Below, piece by piece: positions 1,988 to 46,234 of a stretch of DNA of 64,000 bases (position 1 is its first letter; every line of letters begins with the position of its first letter). The stretch comes from SAR86 cluster bacterium SAR86A (GTDB lineage: Bacteria > Pseudomonadota > Gammaproteobacteria > Magnimaribacterales > D2472), in assembly GCA_000252525.1 (NCBI GenBank), contig JH611157.1, positions 253,472 to 317,471 of the forward strand. Reading direction: 5' to 3'. Made by a program: the position numbers and the translations under genes. Below the pieces are notes generated by a model. The model saw only the letters and a program-made list of their open reading frames with translations, searched no databases and had not been told where the DNA came from.

Positions 1988-3815
1988 GTTCTTTCTTTTT
2001 TAAATGAATAAGGATGAGGTTTATTGCAGCTGGTGTAACTCCCTCTATTTGAGAAGCAGCCCCAATTGTTTGTGGCTGTGTTTTGATAAGTTTTTCTTTC
2101 ACCTCATTTGATAGTCCGTGTATTTCTTCATATTTTATGTTTGTTGGTATCTGTTTGTTGTTTTGTTTTTTGGTTTTGTTGATCTCACGAATTTGTTTTT
2201 TTATATAGCCCGAATACTTTATTTCTGTTATCGCTCTTTGGTAAAGTTTTGTGTCTTTTTTGTTGGGTTTGAATAGTTTTTTTTCGTCCACATCATTTCT
2301 GGATAGCAGGCTTGATATGCTTCTTTTTTCTTGGAGTCTAATTTTGGCTCCGTTTTTATCAATAAAAAAATCTTTTTTTAATTTAACAAGGTTGTTTGTA
2401 TAGAACTTTTTATATTCTTTTTCGTTGCTTAAGTATTTATCAACTCTTTCTTTTTTAACTATTCCAATTTCGTTGGCTTTTAAGATCAGTCTTTGTTCTG
2501 CGTTGTTTTGTGAAAGCAGAAGTCTGTGCTCAGCCCTGCTGGTGAACATTCTGTATGGTTCGGTTATACCATGAGATGTTAAATCATTAATTAATACCCC
2601 AATGTAAGCTTCGCTTCTCTCCAAAACAAAATCTTTTAGTTTTTTTATTGAGTTGCTAGCATTTATTCCTGCCATTAATCCTTGTGCTGCCGCTTCTTCG
2701 TATCCAGTTGTTCCATTAATTTGGCCAGCTAGATAAAGGTTTTCGAGATATTTTGTCTCTAGGTTTTGTTTTAGGGTTCTGGGGTCCACAAAGTCATACT
2801 CTACTGCATAGCCATATTCTGTGATTATAGATCTCTCAAGGCCTTTTATAGAAAAAATAAACTCTTGTTGTGCTTTTTTGGGTAGGCTTGTTGATATTCC
2901 GTTTGGATAAACTAAATCTTTGTTAATTCCCTCTGGTTCGATAAAAATTTGGTGGCTGTTTTTGTCTTGAAATTTTCGAACCTTGTCTTCTATTGAGGGG
3001 CAATACCTTGGGCCTATGCCTTTAATTTCACCGGAATACATAGCTGATAAATGAATGTTTTTATTTATTATTTCATGTGTTTTTTTATTAGTTCTAGTTA
3101 TATAACAAGAGAGTTGTTTTTGGTGTTTTTTTGGTGGTGATGCTAGTGACATCCAAGGGGTTGGTTTTTCACCTGGTTGCTCTTCCATATCTAGAAGGTT
3201 GATGCTTGAGAGTTTTATTCTTGCTGGGGTTCCGGTTTTTAATCTGCCCATTGGTAAGTTTAGGGAATATAATCTTTTTGATAGAGGTATGGATGACTCA
3301 TCGCCAATACGCCCTCCTGTTTTGATAATATTTCCTGTATACATTTTCCCATTCAAAAATGTTCCTGTTGTAAGTATTATCTTTTTTGATTTGTAGGTTT
3401 TTGATTTAGTAATTACGCCTTGTGCCTTCTTATTAGTTAATAAAAAATCAACAACTTCGTCTTGAATGATTTTAATGTTTGTTTCTTTGAGAATTTTTTG
3501 TACTGCTTTTTTATAAAGATCTCTATCGCATTGAACTCTCAGGGCTTGAACTGCGTCTCCCTTCCTAGTATTTAAAGTTCTGTATTGGATTCCAGATAGA
3601 TCTGTAGCTCTCCCCATCAAACCGCCCATTGCATCAATCTCTCTAACAATATGAGATTTACCTAATCCACCTATTGCAGGGTTGCATGACATTTGACCAA
3701 TTTTGGTTTGATCCATTGTTATAAGTGCACAAGATAGACCTGAGCGACTTACAGCGAATGCAGCTTCAGCCCCGGCATGACCGCCTCCTACAACTATAAC
3801 GTCAAACTTATCCAT
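1968..3815 (-). CDS. mnmG: tRNA uridine 5-carboxymethylaminomethyl modification enzyme MnmG (GidA)
   Basis: VVGGGHAG FAD motif, MSCNPAIGG, GPRYCPSIEDK, GQINGTTGYEEAAAQG. Confidence 0.98.
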   Translation of the reverse strand: MDKFDVIVVGGGHAGAEAAFAVSRSGLSCALITMDQTKIGQMSCNPAIGGLGKSHIVREIDAMGGLMGRATDLSGIQYRTLNTRKGDAVQALRVQCDRDLYKKAVQKILKETNIKIIQDEVVDFLLTNKKAQGVITKSKTYKSKKIILTTGTFLNGKMYTGNIIKTGGRIGDESSIPLSKRLYSLNLPMGRLKTGTPARIKLSSINLLDMEEQPGEKPTPWMSLASPPKKHQKQLSCYITRTNKKTHEIINKNIHLSAMYSGEIKGIGPRYCPSIEDKVRKFQDKNSHQIFIEPEGINKDLVYPNGISTSLPKKAQQEFIFSIKGLERSIITEYGYAVEYDFVDPRTLKQNLETKYLENLYLAGQINGTTGYEEAAAQGLMAGINASNSIKKLKDFVLERSEAYIGVLINDLTSHGITEPYRMFTSRAEHRLLLSQNNAEQRLILKANEIGIVKKERVDKYLSNEKEYKKFYTNNLVKLKKDFFIDKNGAKIRLQEKRSISSLLSRNDVDEKKLFKPNKKDTKLYQRAITEIKYSGYIKKQIREINKTKKQNNKQIPTNIKYEEIHGLSNEVKEKLIKTQPQTIGAASQIEGVTPAAINLILIHLKKKELVSQNA

Positions 3816-4026
3816 AATTTATTAAATAATAATATCTATATTATATACTTTCTGTTATTTCTATTAGGCTATGTTTTTTTGTTAATAAGGTTTGTTTTTA
3901 CTTAAATATCAATCAAAAAGACCACTAATAACTAACTTAAAAAACTATTTATACAAACACTTAAAAACATTGAACAAACTGTTAGCAATTTAAAAAGCAA
4001 AATATAAACAACAAGATATCTACAGT
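3816..4026. other. oriC: Putative replication origin oriC (mnmG-proximal)
   Basis: AT-rich DUE-like tract next to mnmG ending in TATTAGG; DnaA-box variants TGTTAATAA (3880-3888), TTATACAAA (3949-3957) and ATATCTACA (4016-4024); IHF-like ATCAA at 3908; the strand-composition switch is centred here. Confidence 0.7.
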
Positions 4027-5343
4027 TTATTTACCAATACAAAAAGAGCTAAATATATCGCCTAAAAGAGAGTCAGAAAATTTTTTGCCTAAAATCTCAT
4101 CCAGTCCTGACCTAGCATTTTTTAAATCTTCAGCTACCAACTCCAAGGATTTAGAGTCATTCAACCCTTTTAATGCAATATCGAGATCCTTGGTTACTTG
4201 GTTGAATAATTTTACATGCCTATCTCTAATAAGATATTGAGAGTTTTTATTGTTTTTTTTATTTCTTTCAAAAAAACTAACTACTAAATTTTTTAGAGAA
4301 TTAAATCCTTCCCCGGTTTTTGCAGAAACACAACAATCAAAAAAAGAAGTATCAGACGAATTTATATCTATCTTGTTTTGTATGATAAAAAAAGAACCCT
4401 TATCACACATCTTCTTAAAACTTGAAACAAGAGACGCATCTTTTTTTTCAAAAACACCCAAAACCAAATCCGCATCAGAAATTTTCTTTATAGAAGTTTC
4501 AATACCTTTTTTTTCGATAACATCTTCTGTTTCTCTTATTCCAGCAGAATCAAAGATAGAAAACTTATTTGATTGAAAAAAGACCTCAGAACTAATCATA
4601 TCTCTTGTGGTGCCGTGAGCATCTGTGACTATTGCTCTTTCATAACCAAGCAAACGGTTAAAGATAGATGATTTACCAGAATTAGTTGGGCCAACCAAAA
4701 CAATATTTTTATTATTACTATACTCCCTTTTGTTTATACAAAGAGAAACAAAAGAACCAAAGTCTTCAATAAGCAAAGAAAGATCATTAGATAAAGAGCC
4801 ATCCATAAAATCTTGCCCTTCATCAGAAAAATCAATCTCAGCCTCAACCCTAACCCTTAACGAGTTTATCCTTTCAGAAAAATCTGAGAGTTTTTTAGAT
4901 AGATCGCCAAACAAAGATGCTCCAGAGAGAAAAACCTCTCGCGACGAAGCGCTCTCAATAAAATCAGACAATGACTCGGCCTCGTTAAGGTTAATTTTGT
5001 CGTTTATAAAAGCTCTTTTTGTAAACTCCCCAGGACTTGCTTGATCAAAACCCTTACTATCAAACAAGTCAACAATTAATGACATAACACCAAGAGATCC
5101 ATGGGCATAAACCTCAAACGAGTCTTCACCAGTATAACTCTCTGGACCCTTAAACAAGATCAAACCAACCCTATCTATAAAAGTTTCATTGTTTTTCAAA
5201 TCACACAATAAAAACCTTCTTGGTTGAGGACTATCTAAACCAAAAATTTCAGATATATAATCGTGACAGCCTTCACCAGAGACCCTAAATATACAAATAG
5301 CAGACTTAACAGCTGGGGTAGCTAAAGCATAAACAACAGACAT
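4027..5343 (-). CDS. mnmE: tRNA modification GTPase MnmE (TrmE)
   Basis: GPESYTGED, GPTNSGKSS, GTTRD, DSAGIR, NKID and C-terminal FCIGK. Confidence 0.97.
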   Translation of the reverse strand: MSVVYALATPAVKSAICIFRVSGEGCHDYISEIFGLDSPQPRRFLLCDLKNNETFIDRVGLILFKGPESYTGEDSFEVYAHGSLGVMSLIVDLFDSKGFDQASPGEFTKRAFINDKINLNEAESLSDFIESASSREVFLSGASLFGDLSKKLSDFSERINSLRVRVEAEIDFSDEGQDFMDGSLSNDLSLLIEDFGSFVSLCINKREYSNNKNIVLVGPTNSGKSSIFNRLLGYERAIVTDAHGTTRDMISSEVFFQSNKFSIFDSAGIRETEDVIEKKGIETSIKKISDADLVLGVFEKKDASLVSSFKKMCDKGSFFIIQNKIDINSSDTSFFDCCVSAKTGEGFNSLKNLVVSFFERNKKNNKNSQYLIRDRHVKLFNQVTKDLDIALKGLNDSKSLELVAEDLKNARSGLDEILGKKFSDSLLGDIFSSFCIGK

Positions 5344-5345
5344 GT

Positions 5346-6878
5346 TTAGTCAGCCAACGCGCCACTTTTTTTGTACATATAAGCTTGTTGAATAAGTTGA
5401 ATACCAGTATTAACAACCATATACAAACCCAGCGCTGCCGGCATAACCACAAAAAACATAGAGAATATAACAGGCATATACTTCATAACCTGTGCTTGTG
5501 TTGGATCCATTCCAGCTGGTTGCGGATTCAGTCTTTGAGTCAAGGTCATTAAAATAGCAAATGTAATTGGAAAAATAAAATAAGGGTCTGGCACCGAAAG
5601 ATCAGACCAGATCACAAAATCACTGTGGCGCAGCTCAACCATTTCTCTCAACGCAAAAAAGAAACCTATAAAAAAAGGCATCTGTATTAACACTGGCAGA
5701 CAGCCACCAAGCGGATTCGCCCCATTTTTTTTAAATAGCTTGAGAGTTTCAGCTTGTGTTTTTTGTGGATCGTCTTTGTAACGCTCTTTAATTTCATTCA
5801 GCTCAGGCGTAAGCTTTCTCATTGCCGCCATAGAAGAAAAAGATTTTGCGGTAACAGGCCAAAAAACCAACTTTATTAAAATAGTAAAAATTACAATCGT
5901 TAAGCCCCAATTATCAACATACCCATTAATCCAATCCATTGCCAAAACCATTGGTTGCGCCAAAAACCAAAACCACCCCATTTCAATAGAAAGCTCTAGA
6001 CTATCTGCCTTCTGCATTAAATCTTTTCTAACTTTTGGCCCAACATACAGCCTGTGTTCATGTTCATATACCAGATTGTTTGCAGAGGTGTTCTCAACCG
6101 TGTAACCCATTCTGTATAACCCGCTTTCAGCAGGAAGGGCATAAAAGTTATAAATATAATCACCAGATCCAAGCAGGGCTGCAAAAAAGTATTTTTGAAC
6201 AAAAGCAATCCAACCAGATCTTGATAAATTTTGAACACCACCTTCTTCGATTTGGTTTAGTTTTGTTGTCTCATACGGGGCGCTGTCAGTGCTTATAGCC
6301 ACCCCAAGATAAGAGCCATTATTCATCATACCCCCACTGAGAACATCTGACTTTAGGTCGAGTGGGCGCCCAGCAGTTCTGTAAAGACCGGCAAAAGATT
6401 TTCCGCTTTCCCCGTTTTTTGAAGAATCAAGAATGTTTATTTCATAGTCTTGCGATGACAATGAAACCCTTTTTGTTAAATTTTTTTCAGGATCTTCAAG
6501 AACAACAAAACTATCCCCAACCTCTGACAAGAGATATACAGGATTCATTCCAGTGAAACCGCTTTTAAAGTAGTAATTGAACGCTGTTTCTGTTGAGCTT
6601 CCAAAAACACGAAAACCCAAAGACCCCTTTACATTTTCTACGGGGTACTCTTTTAGTCTTGTTTCTATAATTGAGCCCGTTCTTGTTGCAACCACAACAA
6701 AAAGCTTGTCATTTTCAATTATAGAATACCCGTCCCCATAACCTGAGGTATTAAAAAACTCTGCATAATCAAGGTGACTATCAATAGATTGTTCTCTTTT
6801 TTGTGACGTCCACTCAAAAAGCAACAAACCAGACAAGACAATTATTAGACCCCAGTATATATTTCTTATATTCATCAA
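5346..6878 (-). CDS. yidC: Membrane protein insertase YidC
   Basis: NWGLTIV, NPLGGCLPVLIQMP, WSDLSVPDPYFIFP; canonical position. Confidence 0.96.
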   Translation of the reverse strand: MMNIRNIYWGLIIVLSGLLLFEWTSQKREQSIDSHLDYAEFFNTSGYGDGYSIIENDKLFVVVATRTGSIIETRLKEYPVENVKGSLGFRVFGSSTETAFNYYFKSGFTGMNPVYLLSEVGDSFVVLEDPEKNLTKRVSLSSQDYEINILDSSKNGESGKSFAGLYRTAGRPLDLKSDVLSGGMMNNGSYLGVAISTDSAPYETTKLNQIEEGGVQNLSRSGWIAFVQKYFFAALLGSGDYIYNFYALPAESGLYRMGYTVENTSANNLVYEHEHRLYVGPKVRKDLMQKADSLELSIEMGWFWFLAQPMVLAMDWINGYVDNWGLTIVIFTILIKLVFWPVTAKSFSSMAAMRKLTPELNEIKERYKDDPQKTQAETLKLFKKNGANPLGGCLPVLIQMPFFIGFFFALREMVELRHSDFVIWSDLSVPDPYFIFPITFAILMTLTQRLNPQPAGMDPTQAQVMKYMPVIFSMFFVVMPAALGLYMVVNTGIQLIQQAYMYKKSGALAD

Positions 6879-23526: not shown

Positions 23527-24678
23527 ATGTTTTTTAGACTATTCTCAATCTTACAGAAGAAGGCATTCTTTGCTCTTCTTTTTATATTAAATACTCCTTT
23601 ACTGAACGCGGATTGGTTTGCTCTAAACATGACCAGAGGAATTACAGATATCAGCAACGAAGTATTTGAGCTTCATATGCTTATATTTTGGATTTGTGTA
23701 GCTATAGGTGTTTTAGTATTTTCCGTAATGTTCTATTCGATGTGGGCACATACCAAAAAGAAAAATCCAGTTCCTGCAAAATTCCATGAAAATCACAAAT
23801 TAGAAATTGCATGGACAATAATTCCTTTTCTTATTCTTATTGCAATGGCTGTTCCTGCATCAAAGACACTTGTAAAAATTTACGATGATGAGGCTGGCGA
23901 TATAAATATTCAGGTAACTGGATATCAATGGAAATGGCAATACAGGTATTTAGAGGATGATGTTAGTTTTTTCTCAAATCTTTCAACAGATTTAGATGAA
24001 ATTTATAACTTAGTTCCAAAAGGCGAAAACTATCTTCAAGAAGTTGATGAAATGGTTGTTATTCCTGCAGGTAAAAAAGTTAGATTTTTAATAACTGCAA
24101 ACGATGTAATCCATTCATGGTGGATGCCTGCTTTTGCTATTAAACAAGACGCTATACCAGGATTTGTAAATACCGCCTGGACTATTGTTGATGAGCCTGG
24201 GATTTACAGAGGAAAATGTACAGAGCTTTGTGGGAAAAACCATGGCTTTATGCCGATTGTCGTTAAAGTTGTTGAACAAGATGAGTATGACGAATGGGTA
24301 TATGGAAAAAAACAAGAAGCAATCAAACTTGCTGAACTAACAACTAAAGAATGGACAGCTGAGGAGCTGGTTACAAGAGGTGAGAGTATATATGAAGTAA
24401 ATTGTGTTGCATGTCATCAAACCTCAGGCGAAGGTATTACTGGAATTTTTCCAGCCCTTGCTGGTAGTGATATCGTTATGAATAATAAGGACAGAAATAT
24501 TGAGATTTTAATGGAAGGCGTTCAAGGTGCAGCAATGAACTCTTTTAGTTATTTATCAGAAGTAGAGCTCGCAGCAGTTATTACCTACACGAGACAATCC
24601 TGGGGTAATGCTGAAAAGGGCGATGGCGAAATAGTTGTCCCTAAAGATATTGTAGATTACAAAGAACCAAAAATTTAA
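23527..24678 (+). CDS. coxB: Cytochrome c oxidase subunit II with C-terminal cytochrome c domain
   Basis: DVIHSW, CuA motif CTELCGKNHGFM, C-terminal CVACH. Confidence 0.96.
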   Translation: MFFRLFSILQKKAFFALLFILNTPLLNADWFALNMTRGITDISNEVFELHMLIFWICVAIGVLVFSVMFYSMWAHTKKKNPVPAKFHENHKLEIAWTIIPFLILIAMAVPASKTLVKIYDDEAGDINIQVTGYQWKWQYRYLEDDVSFFSNLSTDLDEIYNLVPKGENYLQEVDEMVVIPAGKKVRFLITANDVIHSWWMPAFAIKQDAIPGFVNTAWTIVDEPGIYRGKCTELCGKNHGFMPIVVKVVEQDEYDEWVYGKKQEAIKLAELTTKEWTAEELVTRGESIYEVNCVACHQTSGEGITGIFPALAGSDIVMNNKDRNIEILMEGVQGAAMNSFSYLSEVELAAVITYTRQSWGNAEKGDGEIVVPKDIVDYKEPKI

Positions 24679-24692
24679 AATAGGAAATTATT

Positions 24693-26276
24693 ATGAGTGC
24701 AGTTATAGAAAATCATCATGACGACCACCATCACGGTCCTGCCAAAGGTATAACAAGGTGGTTGTACACAACCAACCATAAAGATATAGGAACACTCTAC
24801 TTATGGTTTAGTTTTGCCATGTTCTTAATTGGTGGAGCTATGGCTATGGTCATCAGAGCGGAGCTTTTCCAACCAGGCATGCAGATCGTTGAACCAGAAT
24901 TTTATAACCAAATGATTACATTGCATGGCTTGATTATGATTTTTGGTGGAGTCATGCCTGCTTTTGTTGGTTTGGCAAATTGGCTGGTTCCAATGATGAT
25001 TGGTGCGCCAGACATGGCACTACCTAGAATGAATAACTTAAGTTTTTGGATATTGCCTTTTGCGTTTTTTATTCTTTTATCTTCTTTATTTATGGAAGGA
25101 GGAGCACCCAATTTTGGCTGGACTTTTTATGCTCCACTTTCAACAACATATGCACCACCTAGTGTGACGTTCTTTATTTTTTCTGTTCATATAATGGGAG
25201 CTTCCTCAATAATGGGAGCGATAAATGTTGTTGTAACAATTATGAACATGAGAGCTCCAGGTGTTTCATTAATGAAAATGCCACTTTTTGTTTGGTCATG
25301 GTTAATCACTGCATACTTATTGATTGCTGTGATGCCTGTTTTGGCTGGTGCTGTGACAATGATGTTAATGGATATTCACTTTGGTACAAGCTTCTTTAAC
25401 GCAGCCGGAGGCGGAGATCCAGTTCTTTTTCAACATATATTTTGGTTCTTTGGGCACCCAGAAGTTTATATAATGATATTGCCGGCTTTTGGAATTGTTT
25501 CTCACATAATCGAAACTTTTTCTAGAAAACAACTCTTTGGATATTCCTCAATGGTTTGGGCTATGCTCTCTATTGCAATTCTCTCTTTTGTTGTTTGGGC
25601 ACATCATATGTTTACAGTAGGACTTCCTTTAGCTGCAGAAATATTTTTTATGTGGGCAACAATGCTTATTGCTGTTCCTACTGGTGTAAAAGTTTTTAAT
25701 TGGGTAGCTACAATGTTTAGAGGCTCATTAACTTTCGAAACTCCAATGTTGTTCGCGATAGCATTCGTCGTTCTATTTACAATCGGTGGATTATCAGGAT
25801 TAATGCTTGCTATTGTTCCAGCAGATTTTCAATATCATGATACTTATTTTGTTGTTGCGCACTTCCACTATGTATTAGTACCTGGAGCTATATTCTCCAT
25901 TATGGCAGCAGTTTATTATTGGATACCTAAATGGTCTGGAAACATGTATGACGAGAGATTAGGTAAACTTCATTTTTGGTTGTCATTCATTGGTGTTAAC
26001 GTGACTTTTTTCCCACAGCATTTTATCGGTTTGGCTGGCATGCCAAGAAGATATCCAGATTACGCTTTAGTTTTTGCTGATTGGAATATGGTTTCAAGTG
26101 TTGGAGCTTTCCTATTTGGCTTCTCTCAATTACTTTTCCTTTTTATTGTTATTAAAACTGTGATGGGTGGTAAAAAAGCAACTGATCAAGTTTGGGATGG
26201 AGCGAAAGGACTTGAATGGACAGTAGCTTCACCTGCTCCTTATCATACATTTTCTACTCCACCTAAGGTTGATTAA
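24693..26276 (+). CDS. coxA: Cytochrome c oxidase subunit I (A1 type)
   Basis: TNHKDIG, GHPEVY, WAHHM, AHFHY, GMPRR. Confidence 0.98.
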   Translation: MSAVIENHHDDHHHGPAKGITRWLYTTNHKDIGTLYLWFSFAMFLIGGAMAMVIRAELFQPGMQIVEPEFYNQMITLHGLIMIFGGVMPAFVGLANWLVPMMIGAPDMALPRMNNLSFWILPFAFFILLSSLFMEGGAPNFGWTFYAPLSTTYAPPSVTFFIFSVHIMGASSIMGAINVVVTIMNMRAPGVSLMKMPLFVWSWLITAYLLIAVMPVLAGAVTMMLMDIHFGTSFFNAAGGGDPVLFQHIFWFFGHPEVYIMILPAFGIVSHIIETFSRKQLFGYSSMVWAMLSIAILSFVVWAHHMFTVGLPLAAEIFFMWATMLIAVPTGVKVFNWVATMFRGSLTFETPMLFAIAFVVLFTIGGLSGLMLAIVPADFQYHDTYFVVAHFHYVLVPGAIFSIMAAVYYWIPKWSGNMYDERLGKLHFWLSFIGVNVTFFPQHFIGLAGMPRRYPDYALVFADWNMVSSVGAFLFGFSQLLFLFIVIKTVMGGKKATDQVWDGAKGLEWTVASPAPYHTFSTPPKVD

Positions 26277-42470: not shown

Positions 42471-42536
42471 TTAAACGTTTATATCATATCAACCTATGTT
42501 TATAATACACATCAACAATACACACTTATATTTTCT

Positions 42537-43202
42537 ATGAAATATTTTTTAATATTTTTTATATTTTTAGGCTCTATTAATTTTTTATTTGCAGCTGAAG
42601 AAAGCTCAAAAAAAATAGAATTGCCTGATAATTTTGTTTCAGGAGATTCTGAAAGAGGATCACAATTAGTTGAATCATGTTCTGCATGTCATGGAACAGA
42701 CGGAAATAGTATAAGTAGTGATTGGCCTAAACTAGCTGGTCAAAACCAAAAGTATCTATATGAACAATTACAGTATTTTAAAGACGGCGTCAGAATGAAT
42801 GCGCTCATGATGTCAGTAACCCCATACCTTCAGACTCTAGATAATGAAGATCTTCTTGATATTGCTGCATTTTATTCGAATTATGAAACTTCAGTTGGAC
42901 AAGCCAAGAATGATGAAGAATTACTTAATGTTGGTACACAATTATATAGGTTTGGTAACATGAAAAAAGGTATACCTGCATGCACTTCTTGTCATGCGGT
43001 TTATGGTCAGGGGAATAGCTTGGCCGGTTTTCCAGCAGTTGCGGGACAACAGATCGGATACTTAACTTCAACGCTAAAAGCTTACAGATCAAAAGAAAGA
43101 AACACGGGCGAATTATCAGAAATGATGCAATCTATTGCACAAAATCTATCTGATGATGAAATAGACGCTTTAGCAAACTATATGCATGGGTTATATCAAT
43201 GA
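42537..43202 (+). CDS. Di-haem cytochrome c4
   Basis: Signal peptide, CSACH and CTSCH, WPKLAGQ; divergent from engB. Confidence 0.92.
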   Translation: MKYFLIFFIFLGSINFLFAAEESSKKIELPDNFVSGDSERGSQLVESCSACHGTDGNSISSDWPKLAGQNQKYLYEQLQYFKDGVRMNALMMSVTPYLQTLDNEDLLDIAAFYSNYETSVGQAKNDEELLNVGTQLYRFGNMKKGIPACTSCHAVYGQGNSLAGFPAVAGQQIGYLTSTLKAYRSKERNTGELSEMMQSIAQNLSDDEIDALANYMHGLYQ

Positions 43203-43822
43203 AGATACTATTTAATAATAAACTAGGATTAATTTTTATTCTTTTATTTTCTTTATCTGCCAAAGCTGAATTTAGACTTGGGGTAGACTATACGATGGTT
43301 AGCAACCCGATGCCTGTAAAACAAGATGGTGTTGTAGAAGTGATGGAATCATTTTGGTATGGATGCAATGCATGTTATTCATTTGAACCATCAATTAATG
43401 CATGGGCTGCGGAACAAGATTCAGATGTGAAACTCGTAAAGATGCCTATTACATGGTCTGGTATTCACCAATTACATGCAGCTTTATATTACACAATAGA
43501 ATCTTTGAAACTCGATCCCTCAACACACTCAGCAGTATTTGTGACAATTCATAAGGAAGGAAATTTTTTACAAAGCCCCGCAAAAATTCAGGAATTTCTC
43601 GAGAAATTTGGAGTTGCACCAGAGCTTACATCACAATATTTGAATTCTTTCACTGTCAAGCAAAGAGTTAATAGAGGAATAAAATATGCCAAACAATTAA
43701 AGATTGATGGAGTGCCAACAATAATTGTTGACGGAAAATATGTTGTTCAATCAAAAGGCTCTTTTGGAAGGATGCTTGAGGTTGTTGATTATTTAGTTGA
43801 ACTTCAAAAACCTGTTAGTTGA
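43199..43822 (+). CDS. dsbA: Thiol:disulfide interchange protein DsbA
   Basis: Signal peptide, FWYGCNAC, cis-Pro loop GVPT, VDGKY. Confidence 0.9.
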   Translation: MKILFNNKLGLIFILLFSLSAKAEFRLGVDYTMVSNPMPVKQDGVVEVMESFWYGCNACYSFEPSINAWAAEQDSDVKLVKMPITWSGIHQLHAALYYTIESLKLDPSTHSAVFVTIHKEGNFLQSPAKIQEFLEKFGVAPELTSQYLNSFTVKQRVNRGIKYAKQLKIDGVPTIIVDGKYVVQSKGSFGRMLEVVDYLVELQKPVS

Positions 43823-44418
43823 AAATTATGAATAAGAAAAAATTACTGTTTATCATTCCTCTATGTTTTTTAGTTCTTTTTAATGGCAAAAAATATGATG
43901 AAGCTGTCAAAGAAAGGTTATTTCTTCCAATTAAGTTGTGCTTAGAGGGTGAAGATTGCGGCACAGTCTCTCAAGCATCTCAAATGTCAGCCAACGTATC
44001 ACAATCTGAAGTAAAAAAAGTTGAATTGTCAGAAGGCTCAGAACATGTTGTAAAGATGTTGAACGTAGGTGAAGGAGGCCAAATGATTTTTGAGCCTGCA
44101 GTCATAAAAGTTTCAAAGGGAGATACAATTCATTTTAAAGCTACTGATATGTCTCATAATTCTGTTTCTGTTGATGGAATGGTTCCTAGCGGTGCATCGC
44201 CATGGGCAGGACAACTTAATCAAGACATAAGTGTTACATTCGATACTGAAGGTGTTTATGTTTATCAATGCGATCCGCACGTAATGATGGCAATGATTGG
44301 AGTTATTCAGGTTGGAGATCCAATTAATATGGAAGAAATAAAGAAAGCCTCTCAGGATTACAGATCAAAATTTGTTATGAATGCTGAAAGAATAGACAAC
44401 TATCTAAATCAGCTTTAA
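43819..44418 (+). CDS. Pseudoazurin-like blue copper protein with cytochrome-c5-like N-terminal extension; likely start ATG at 43828
   Basis: VKMLN..G.MIFEP, SHNS, EGVYVYQCDPHVMMAM (type-1 Cu ligands); N-terminal EAVKERL..PIKLCLEGEDC; no CXXCH. Confidence 0.85.
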   Translation: MKIMNKKKLLFIIPLCFLVLFNGKKYDEAVKERLFLPIKLCLEGEDCGTVSQASQMSANVSQSEVKKVELSEGSEHVVKMLNVGEGGQMIFEPAVIKVSKGDTIHFKATDMSHNSVSVDGMVPSGASPWAGQLNQDISVTFDTEGVYVYQCDPHVMMAMIGVIQVGDPINMEEIKKASQDYRSKFVMNAERIDNYLNQL

Positions 44419-44645
44419 TCTTTTTCAAGCTGACTAATTCTTTTTTCTAAATCATCCACAAGATCTTTAAGATTTTGATATTTAGATTTTTTTACAAATC
44501 CACTTTTTTCAATAATCTGGTCTATTTGAGGAGATATATTTTTTTCGATGTTATTAAGAGCTTCCTTAGGGACTAGTTTTGAAACTTTATTTATCTCTTT
44601 TTCAATAATACTCCTTATCGCGCTTGAAAGATCTTTATCACTCAT
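44415..44645 (-). CDS. UbiK/BMFP-like small coiled-coil protein
   Basis: 76 aa from ATG 44645 (the track ORF is over-extended); FVKKSKYQ..KDLVDDLEKRISQLE resembles the UbiK LVxREEF..LExRxxxLE pattern. Confidence 0.55.
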   Translation of the reverse strand: MSDKDLSSAIRSIIEKEINKVSKLVPKEALNNIEKNISPQIDQIIEKSGFVKKSKYQNLKDLVDDLEKRISQLEKD

Positions 44646-45369
44646 ATTTTTCTTTAATAATTTGGGGTAATTTATACCAAGAATCAAATTCATCTGGTTT
44701 TTTAAAACTTTGACTCCACACAGCATTAGTATTATTAAACCAAAGTGCCTCAATGCCAAGGTTGAATGCTCCAAACACGTCATTAATTTGATGATCTCCA
44801 ATATGTAACATATCGCTATAGTTAGAGCTATTTATTTTGTTTAACGCTTGATCAAAATGTGATCTATTAGGTTTGCTATCTTTTGCCTCAAGTGAGCTAA
44901 TTGAAAAATCAAAAAACTTACCAATTTCAAATTTAAATATATCTGCATTTCCATTTGTAAGAATCCCAAGAGTATATTTTTGAGATAACTGTTCTATCGA
45001 TTCCTCAACACCATCATAAAATTCTACTTCGTGTCTTTTTTGAATGAATATTTCAAAAGCCTTATCAACTAATTCGTTTCTGTAAGATTCTGGTTCTATA
45101 TGAATAAGTTTCTTTCTAAAAATTTCTTTTCTAAGTTTACTTATATCCCATGCAATACTTTCATCTTCTTTAATTAACTCTTCTCTAAGATTAAGAAAAT
45201 CATCAAAATCACCCCATTCAATCCTACCGACTTTATCTTCAATCCACTTCCTTGTATCTATCTCTGCTTTTCTTATAGTGGGCATGTTATCCCAAAGAGT
45301 ATCATCAAGATCAAAGGTAATGAGTTCAATTTTTTTATTCATTCTTTGCCCTTGGATGTGCTTCATCAT
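44638..45369 (-). CDS. HAD-superfamily hydrolase (YigB-like); likely start ATG at 45342
   Basis: FDLDDTLWD, LTNGNAD, KP, HIGDHQINDV; downstream of xerC. Confidence 0.9.
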   Translation of the reverse strand: MMKHIQGQRMNKKIELITFDLDDTLWDNMPTIRKAEIDTRKWIEDKVGRIEWGDFDDFLNLREELIKEDESIAWDISKLRKEIFRKKLIHIEPESYRNELVDKAFEIFIQKRHEVEFYDGVEESIEQLSQKYTLGILTNGNADIFKFEIGKFFDFSISSLEAKDSKPNRSHFDQALNKINSSNYSDMLHIGDHQINDVFGAFNLGIEALWFNNTNAVWSQSFKKPDEFDSWYKLPQIIKEKYE

Positions 45370-46234
45370 AGATTTTTGCTAGATGCTGATAATCTAATTT
45401 AGTGTAGATCTGAGTCGTAGATAAAGAACTATGACCTAATAACTCTTGAATGGTTCTCAAATCTCCACTTGATTCAAGCATATGTGTTGCAAAACTATGT
45501 CTCAACATATGAGGATGAATTGGAGGAAGCCCCTGTTTGATTGCCATCTTCTTAAGCCTTAATTGAACACTTCGGATTGACAGTCTGCTACCTTTCGAAT
45601 TAAGGAAAAGAGCTTCCGTATCATTAGATATTTTTTTTCTTTCATTTAACCAGTTTTCAACAGCTTTAATTGCAAACTTTCCTAAAGGCACAAGCCTTGT
45701 CTTAGAGCCCTTACCAAGCACTCTTAGAAACGCCATATCGTCTTCGAAATCAGTAATATTAATATTAATTGCCTCAGAAACTCTTAACCCAGAAGAGTAC
45801 ATTAATTCAACTATAGCCATGTCTCTTATCTCGATAACAGAGCTTGGTTTAAAATTTAGTAACTGTTCTACGTCTTCAGGAGACAAAACATCCGGCAGGG
45901 TGTTTGCAATTTTTGGCGCTGTAACTAAGTCAAGAGGAGAAGAAGAAATCAACCCATTTTTTTTTAAAAATCTAAAGAAACCTTTTGCAGAAGATAAATG
46001 TCTTTGTATGCTTCTAGGATTATTACCTGAAGTGTAGAGATCGCCAATCCATGCAGAACATACTTCATCATCTATTTGATTATATTGAGATATATTTAAA
46101 CTATTGATAAATGCAGCAAATTTTTTTAGGTCTCTTTCATAAGATAAGGATGTATTTTTAGATAGGTTTTTTACATCCGAAACATAAAGTATGTAATCTT
46201 TAATATTTTTATGGATAAACTTATCATTTTCCAT
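45335..46234 (-). CDS. xerC: Tyrosine recombinase XerC
   Basis: SSGLRVSE, GKGSK, HPHMLRHSFATH, LGHSSLSTTQIY; dapF-DUF484-xerC-HAD synteny. Confidence 0.94.
   Translation of the reverse strand: MENDKFIHKNIKDYILYVSDVKNLSKNTSLSYERDLKKFAAFINSLNISQYNQIDDEVCSAWIGDLYTSGNNPRSIQRHLSSAKGFFRFLKKNGLISSSPLDLVTAPKIANTLPDVLSPEDVEQLLNFKPSSVIEIRDMAIVELMYSSGLRVSEAININITDFEDDMAFLRVLGKGSKTRLVPLGKFAIKAVENWLNERKKISNDTEALFLNSKGSRLSIRSVQLRLKKMAIKQGLPPIHPHMLRHSFATHMLESSGDLRTIQELLGHSSLSTTQIYTKLDYQHLAKIYDEAHPRAKNE

Follow-up and report, generated by a model that had tools for sequence, protein, structure and literature searches.

In the bc1-c4-c5-cbb3 supercomplex of Pseudomonas aeruginosa (8SMR/8SNH; Di Trani et al. 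2023), cytochrome c4 is seated on cytochrome c1, and the 16-residue N-terminal tail of cytochrome c5 contacts both c4 and c1 (PMC10556555). The linker and the haem head of c5 are mobile, with sub-classes that place the head near c4 or near CcoP of the cbb3 oxidase, and c5 is read there as a tethered shuttle bridging c4 to cbb3 (PMC10556555). Here we describe a chimeric carrier gene of SAR86 cluster bacterium SAR86A, located in a 64,000-nucleotide (nt) stretch of contig JH611157.1 (the window, to which all unprefixed coordinates refer), that encodes a leader, a c5-type tail, a linker and a pseudoazurin head. Its product is probably a tethered periplasmic electron shuttle, in which a c5 docking tail and linker carry a pseudoazurin head with copper where c5 has its haem head.

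The open reading frame (ORF) for the carrier extends on the plus strand from a TTG at position 43819 to 44418 (199 amino acids, aa). This span was given in the initial annotation of the window, and the ORF is real, but we placed the start at the ATG at 43828 because the genes of relatives start at that position; the gene thus occupies 43828..44418 (+), with 196 aa and a stop codon, and residue numbers follow the 196-aa form. In agreement with that annotation, the protein holds EAVKERLFLPIKLCLEGEDCG after a hydrophobic leader, then a Ser/Gln/Ala-rich stretch and then SHN...CDPHVMMAM, which belongs to a pseudoazurin domain. The protein sequence lacks CXXCH and has no PF13442 or PF00034 match in a Pfam scan; thus, the carrier is not a c5 itself. 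Only four Cys residues are present (C13, C38, C44 and C148).

An AlphaFold2 model built on an alignment of relatives (mean predicted local distance difference test score, pLDDT, of 74.8) has pLDDT below 50 at residues 36-40 and 42-61 and about 90 over the head. The leader (residues 1-18; 43828..43881, +) falls within a single modelled helix over residues 4-31. In the window's family it ends in ...LFNG-KKY, without an obvious signal-peptidase site, and may stay as an uncleaved membrane anchor; the leaders of relatives from family f2 have an ...LGA|SEA-type cleavage site. The c5-type docking tail (residues 19-45; 43882..43962, +) comprises a helix, the invariant Arg30 and Cys38-x5-Cys44. It is followed by a Ser/Ala/Gln-rich linker (residues 46-63; 43963..44016, +) of low pLDDT and high pN (proportion of non-synonymous differences), which varies in length and sequence among relatives in the alignment of tail-pseudoazurin proteins (long forms). 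The junction motif K-V-E-L-S-E-G-S-E-H and the pseudoazurin head make up residues 64-196 (44017..44415, +). The copper ligands H110 (44155-44157), C148 (44269-44271), H151 (44278-44280) and M156 (44293-44295; all +), the last three in a C-x2-H-x4-M loop, are conserved without exception in the 32 aligned long forms. The head matches Pfam Copper-bind over residues 79-165 (E 9.7e-18), and the NCBIfam pseudoazurin model TIGR02375 scores 128.6 bits against an equivalog cut-off of 109.85 over residues 80-198 of the 199-aa form. The best Protein Data Bank (PDB) match of the head is the pseudoazurin 3TU6 (E 9.1e-30), solved pseudoazurins spanning E 1e-22 to 9e-30. Among cupredoxins, a pseudoazurin is recognised by a beta-sandwich with two C-terminal helices; the modelled head has strands over residues 72-162 and C-terminal helices at 168-178 and 186-195. 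By these sequence and model criteria, the head is a pseudoazurin with a predicted type-1 copper site. One close homologue (81% identical) is labelled as a metagenome-assembled genome of Gammaproteobacteria, and many homologue copies derive from ocean surveys.

Several lines of evidence connect the N-terminal part of the carrier to cytochrome c5. Relative G028, which belongs to another family and lacks a long pseudoazurin, has at the same slot, next to yigB-xerC-DUF484-dapF-lysA, a gene for 138 aa in which a leader and segment resembling those of the carrier lead into a CXXCH haem domain (PF13442, E 1.1e-14). Residues 1-54 of this c5 match the 196-aa pseudoazurins in a search of the order (E 2.2e-9 to ~1e-7). 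The Arg and both Cys residues are invariant in 26 and in 32 aligned tails, irrespective of the head. When a 29-column tail profile was run against 401 genomes of the class, the tail was found in four genomes of the order and in seven of the 397 genomes of other families, where the attached domain is always of the c5 haem type; there were two further degenerate cases outside the order. The profile also matches chain L ('Cytochrome C5') of 8SMR/8SNH at residues 22-42 (E 4.5e-6). Ordinary pseudoazurins, by comparison, lack the segment, as the initial annotation had supposed. Pseudoazurin-domain matches outside the order all start at query residue 47 or beyond, solved pseudoazurins align only from query residue 71-75 onward, and the tail is absent from all 27 cupredoxin loci examined in other families of the class, which have plain signal peptides or lipoprotein-type linkers instead (one of these loci is from the unpublished genome G250; the other 26 give the same result). 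Collectively, these matches identify the carrier tail as homologous to the N-terminal tail of gammaproteobacterial cytochrome c5, the resemblance from which the initial annotation had started.

A 33-column tail profile run against 1.84 billion representatives gave 161 significant matches; among the 150 listed, the 79 proteins of at least 105 aa that were scanned comprise 52 with cytochrome c heads (a few with two haem domains), two with copper heads, five with unrelated Pfam domains (S7, Clp, TPR, NamZ and ephrin-like) and 20 without a Pfam match. The latter 25 were considered as candidate new head types, and all 15 that were read proved to be truncated, frameshifted or chimeric copies of known forms. 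Separately, in other bacteria, proteins P0190, P0200 and P0219 and locus L097 consist of a c5-type tail followed by two cytochrome c domains (276-325 aa).

A census of 201 genomes of the order, representing four families (f1-f4) and counted by eye from two genome searches, shows that the heads are alternative states of one chromosomal slot beside yigB-xerC. The tail is joined to a c5 haem domain in 72 genomes (17 in f1, 23 in f2, 7 in f3 and 25 in f4), bearing out the expectation that relatives carry c5 at the orthologous locus, and to pseudoazurin in at least 99 (41 in f1, 19 in f2, 39 in f3 and 0 of 30 in f4). Both forms together were found in none of the 201 genomes. A tail-less c5, which in the four cases read consists of a leader and a haem domain (103-117 aa), is present in 24 genomes, always directly downstream of a tail-pseudoazurin gene and on the same strand; this intermediate form is missing from the initial annotation. 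In a fourth form, read in three genera belonging to the window's family (G041, G068 and G209; L043:5059-5481, L047:5481-5927 and L050:5436-5840), the tail carries a class I cytochrome c domain of another kind. This domain matches PF00034/PF13442 and is ~31% identical to a c4 domain, and the match pattern recurs in ~12 further genomes of one genus. The copper form is present in 18 of 19 genomes of the window's own genus, the remaining genome being 80% complete. Seven genera are polymorphic: haem and copper forms number 7 and 7 in g15, 8 and 14 in g7, 4 and 2 in g20, and 1 and 2 in g21; haem and two-gene forms number 3 and 2 in g13 and 7 and 9 in g6; and g11 has 2 copper forms and ~12 with the second cytochrome. 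The fusion is old, varies across the order and is not peculiar to this genome. Five more f4 genomes (for example, G030; L051:5145-5540) have at the slot a c5 whose tail is without the Cys pair, with the leader and the acidic start of the helix kept; such tails may represent natural decay of the docking tail.

The boundaries between alleles fall exactly between the tail or linker and the head. In within-genus blastn comparisons of g20, g7, g21, g15 and g11, DNA identity is 72-88% over the upstream flank and over the first 31-45 codons, which encode leader and tail; homology breaks after the tail and returns at, or ~30-60 nt past, the end of the gene. When the haem and two-gene forms of g6 are compared, homology returns exactly at the start of the haem domain, where codon 70 of the tail-c5 gene corresponds to codon 26 of the tail-less c5, and the linker of the haem form matches the linker that precedes the copper head. 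Given these breakpoints, adding a cassette of ~490 nt to the haem form yields the two-gene form; this cassette comprises the junction motif, the copper domain, a stop codon and a new leader. The tails track taxonomy and not the head: that of the window protein is 62% identical to a c5 tail of the same family and ~30% identical to the tails of other families. Together with the shared slot and the homology of the tail, these boundaries support the in-situ exchange of a haem for a copper domain that the initial annotation had proposed at its core; its standing rests on the findings that the segment resembles c5 N-termini, that ordinary pseudoazurins are without it and that relatives have c5 at this locus. 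A metagenome protein, P0125 (132 aa), encoded on a single contig of 1300 nt, shares its first 24 residues with the window protein and otherwise follows the cytochrome-headed allele of another genus; its junction reflects either genuine recombination within the tail or a chimeric assembly.

As for how the alleles arose, the junction motif, in the general form K-(V/I)-x-L-S-E-G-S-E-H, precedes the copper domain in long forms of three families. The long forms of f1 and f2 constitute a well-supported clade (99/97 in one tree and 96/95 in another), and a single clade for all 23 long forms is not rejected (approximately unbiased test, p-AU 0.288). In the same genomes, the short, ordinary pseudoazurins group by family, with 53-67% identity to the long heads. 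Most likely, a single old insertion was followed by differential loss and exchange. A pseudoazurin cassette with the junction motif would have entered a c5 gene once, between the linker and the haem domain, giving the two-gene form; later losses would have removed the c5 gene in some lineages, this one included, and the copper cassette in others, and close relatives would have exchanged alleles. A history in which copper and haem heads repeatedly replaced each other by recombination between lineages, with breakpoints in the linker, is the strongest competitor, if a somewhat unlikely one. It would account for the seven polymorphic genera, for flanks and tails that are orthologous in DNA while the difference is confined to the head, for copper heads with 65-75% identity between families beside neighbours with 35-50% and a tail that follows taxonomy, and for the junction seen in P0125. 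Nevertheless, the head trees broadly follow the families, the tail-less c5 genes group with the c5 of their own family, and P0125 may be chimeric given its single short contig. Moreover, although the same genome pairs yield cross-family identities of 67-72% for long heads and 59-63% for short ones, the long heads are also somewhat slower within the genus, so that their likeness across families needs no transfer. We retain the single insertion as the preferred history.

Both sequence constraint and a predicted complex bear on the role of the tail under the copper head. Judging from the chain length of the tail described for P. aeruginosa, the 16 contacting residues would correspond approximately to residues 19-34, that is, to the Arg-bearing helix, ending before the Cys pair. 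Across 11 genomes of the genus (55 pairs), tail and head have similar pN values (0.124 and 0.115) and the linker reaches 0.345, with synonymous sites of the carrier gene saturated (~0.7) in same-genus pairs. As its pN is close to that of the copper head and about one third of that of the linker, the tail is under selection after losing the haem head. We further modelled carrier residues 19-60 in a complex with three haems and this genome's c1 (residues 28-245) and c4 (20-221). Scores were 0.81, 0.79 and 0.79 in three runs, 0.01 and 0.01 in controls with unrelated partners, and 0.55 in a control with c1 replaced; 58 of 80 solved complexes attain the pass mark, as do 2 of 110 mismatched pairs. 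The runs share at least 63% of contacts, with partner pLDDT of at least 66, and the predicted interface is made up of tail residues 24-45, residues 53-95 of c1 and residues 120-130, 155-156 and 215-221 of c4. By analogy with the solved supercomplex, we infer that the tail would dock on the c4 and c1 of this genome. The 'anchoring module' of the initial annotation was indeed kept, but the P. aeruginosa structure points to a docking tail for c4 and c1 and not just an anchor (PMC10556555).

The respiratory parts of the genome (1.25 Mb in two contigs, 91.9% complete) suggest where such a shuttle would work. Cytochrome c1 is encoded at G000:C1:139195-140031 (PF02167, E 3.4e-17), and the dihaem cytochrome c4, the predicted docking partner of the tail, at 42537..43202 (+). 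The only haem-copper oxidase found is of the caa3 type: its subunit II, CoxB (COX2; 23527..24678, +), has a fused C-terminal cytochrome c domain and is the presumed electron acceptor, and CoxA (COX1; 24783..26114, +) is the sole PF00115 match in the genome. Searches of the genome, within its stated completeness, found no second COX1/NorB-type oxidase, no c5 haem domain and no Cu nitrite reductase (nirK), and CXXCH is present in just eight ORFs of at least 70 aa genome-wide. Considering the parts found and not found, a known pathway would offer a copper shuttle just one position, the step from bc1/c4 to the caa3-type oxidase, and this is where the copper-headed carrier presumably works. With its tail docked on c4 and c1, as in the P. 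aeruginosa supercomplex, the copper head would swing on the linker, take electrons from c4 and hand these on to the CoxB cytochrome c domain in the caa3-type oxidase, the sole terminal oxidase found. Donation to that oxidase is a proposal, and the exchange of one haem for one copper per shuttle would, if the head swap works in this way, spare iron. Two further redox proteins are encoded outside the window. One of the eight CXXCH-bearing ORFs (G000:C2:223008-224045) specifies a 345-aa dihaem protein of the SO2930 family (TIGR03806, 366.9 bits). The other is a second, ordinary pseudoazurin of 151 aa with a plain signal peptide (G000:C1:622588-623043; L014:2589-3044), which is 57-58% identical to the carrier head, has no redox neighbours and has a counterpart in most relatives.

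Several observations weigh against this picture. The delivery step is without structural precedent, the oxidase being of the caa3 and not the cbb3 type. In genus g12, which belongs to the window's family, c4 is missing between engB and dsbA and was found in none of five genomes (80-93% complete), although the same query finds c4 in five of five genomes of two other families. These g12 genomes (G084, G044, G092, G184 and G211) keep the tail-pseudoazurin gene with altered Cys spacing (L126 = G084:C1:263000-273000, positions 3490-5350), and hence the tail is not strictly tied to c4. The complex was computed with our own alignments and with ligands, which departs from the calibration of the tool, and its score may only reflect likeness to 8SMR/8SNH and not binding; because a like complex is already solved, the prediction demonstrates likeness. 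The head trees broadly follow taxonomy, and a search for lateral transfer of the copper head between families gave no clear signal in cross-family identities. The second pseudoazurin means that the role of the copper head need not be unique. As to expression, at least 65% of the words sampled from window positions 42500-44700 occur in each of 14 metatranscriptome runs from eight studies, contigs of at least 95% likeness cover the carrier partly or wholly in the four runs compared, and one contig of 1908 nt spans the 3' end of c4, dsbA and the carrier gene; these contigs attest presence only, DNA carry-over being possible in RNA libraries. As a separate observation, the g12 genomes may run the step from bc1 to the oxidase without any soluble c-type cytochrome.

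Three alternative functions can be set against the docked shuttle. The tail could be merely a membrane anchor or a relic, with the pseudoazurin diffusing as an ordinary, perhaps membrane-held, carrier that docks on neither c4 nor c1. The leader of the window's family, lacking an obvious cleavage site, could tether the protein alone, g12 has the carrier but no detectable c4, and the tail and linker were modelled on their own at low confidence. We nevertheless regard this alternative as quite unlikely, given that the tail Arg and Cys pair are invariant, that the pN of the tail equals that of the copper domain, that the predicted complex scores above its controls and that the homologous P. aeruginosa tail was seen bound to c4 and c1 (PMC10556555). 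Less probable still, in our estimation, is that the copper head serves another partner, such as the SO2930-family dihaem cytochrome or some other periplasmic redox enzyme, so that the exchange of heads would be a change of pathway and not a substitution of metal. Pseudoazurins elsewhere do serve several periplasmic enzymes, the dihaem cytochrome is present in this genome, and two-gene relatives retain both heads, suggesting that their roles are not identical. Against this stand the failure to find nirK or a second COX1/NorB-type gene in the genome, the location of the gene in the c4-dsbA run, and the mutual exclusion of tail-c5 and tail-pseudoazurin across 201 genomes, as expected for alternatives in one job. 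Finally, that the carrier is a copper chaperone or store for assembly of the CuA/CuB sites of the oxidase, a thought prompted by its periplasmic copper-binding fold and by the copper requirement of the sole oxidase in this genome, is hardly credible for a protein that exceeds the pseudoazurin equivalog cut-off, has the full His-Cys-His-Met type-1 site invariant and occupies an electron carrier's place on an electron-carrier tail.

The immediate surroundings of the carrier gene agree in part with the initial annotation. The c4 gene is the first of the c4-dsbA-carrier run and overlaps by 4 nt with the gene for a DsbA-like thiol:disulfide oxidoreductase (43199..43822, +), which ends 5 nt before the carrier ATG; this neighbour could form the Cys38-Cys44 disulfide of the tail. 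Downstream, on the minus strand, the order is a HAD/yigB-like gene, xerC, a DUF484 gene, dapF and lysA, of which the yigB-like HAD hydrolase and xerC (44638..46234, -) form the conserved right flank that marks the slot in relatives. Accordingly, c4-dsbA upstream and yigB-xerC downstream stand as annotated. Between the carrier and yigB lies a small coiled-coil-like ORF (44415-44645, -; 76 aa from an internal Met), which the window's family has and family f2 lacks. The label 'ubiK' that had been attached to it is unsupported, since no family reached its cut-off. The supposed placing of the Pseudomonas c5 gene in similar surroundings was not borne out either: seven outgroup c5 loci, with ~1.2-1.6 kb on each side, contain no yigB, xerC, dsbA or c4. 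A promoter and terminator scan was uninformative: 17.8 promoter-like sites were expected and 11 were found, and there was no terminator-like site.

Extended to the whole order, these observations invite a more tentative proposal, which we hold with some reserve: the bc1-c4-docked shuttle may be a plug-in system in which one tail accepts exchangeable heads (haem c5, copper, both as two genes, or a second cytochrome c), sister lineages having fixed different heads and one genus having also dropped c4. The carrier might then be the first natural blue-copper protein to act as the tethered shuttle of a bc1-linked assembly, and the allele could mark the iron/copper regime of a population. Either way, the slot offers a clean natural experiment in the modular evolution of respiratory chains, with the positioning part conserved, the metal centre swapped and the intermediates still living, and the distribution of the haem/copper polymorphism, at one readily identified locus, could be compared with iron and copper measurements from the ocean. 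If the copper head works as proposed, assemblies of the bc1-c4-c5 type can take a cupredoxin instead of their mobile cytochrome, the logic of the Pseudomonas supercomplex extends to caa3 oxidases, and abundant ocean bacteria trim respiratory haem iron lineage by lineage. Among the papers listed in searches on SAR86, pseudoazurin/cupredoxin, cytochrome c5, membrane anchors and iron limitation, none was found that by title or abstract describes a tail-pseudoazurin fusion.

Compared with P. aeruginosa c5 (CycB), the carrier shares a tail with the Arg and Cys-x5-Cys, a flexible linker and a small redox head, and both genomes encode c4 and c1, contact of the tail with the two being only predicted here. 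It differs in having a type-1 copper pseudoazurin head instead of a CXXCH haem domain, in a leader that may remain as a membrane anchor, and in an oxidase of the caa3 rather than the cbb3 type. With pseudoazurins (TIGR02375; 3TU6, 1BQK) it has in common the equivalog score, the His-Cys-His-Met ligands and, in the model, the two C-terminal helices, whereas its ~45 extra N-terminal residues (tail and linker), and a genome in which no Cu nitrite reductase was found, set it apart. Among membrane-tethered carriers, the lipid-modified azurin Laz of Neisseria is one example. Cytochrome cy of Rhodobacter is another (PMC7876108). The carrier resembles the two in combining an anchor, a flexible linker and a small redox head beside respiratory complexes; their anchors, in contrast, are a transmembrane helix or a lipid and are unrelated to the c5 tail. 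To our knowledge, neither occurs as a haem/copper polymorphism at one locus. In cyanobacteria and algae, plastocyanin and cytochrome c6 alternate by metal supply in one electron-transfer job. Those proteins are the products of separate, regulated genes, whereas the heads described here alternate on one tail, at one locus, and are fixed by lineage.

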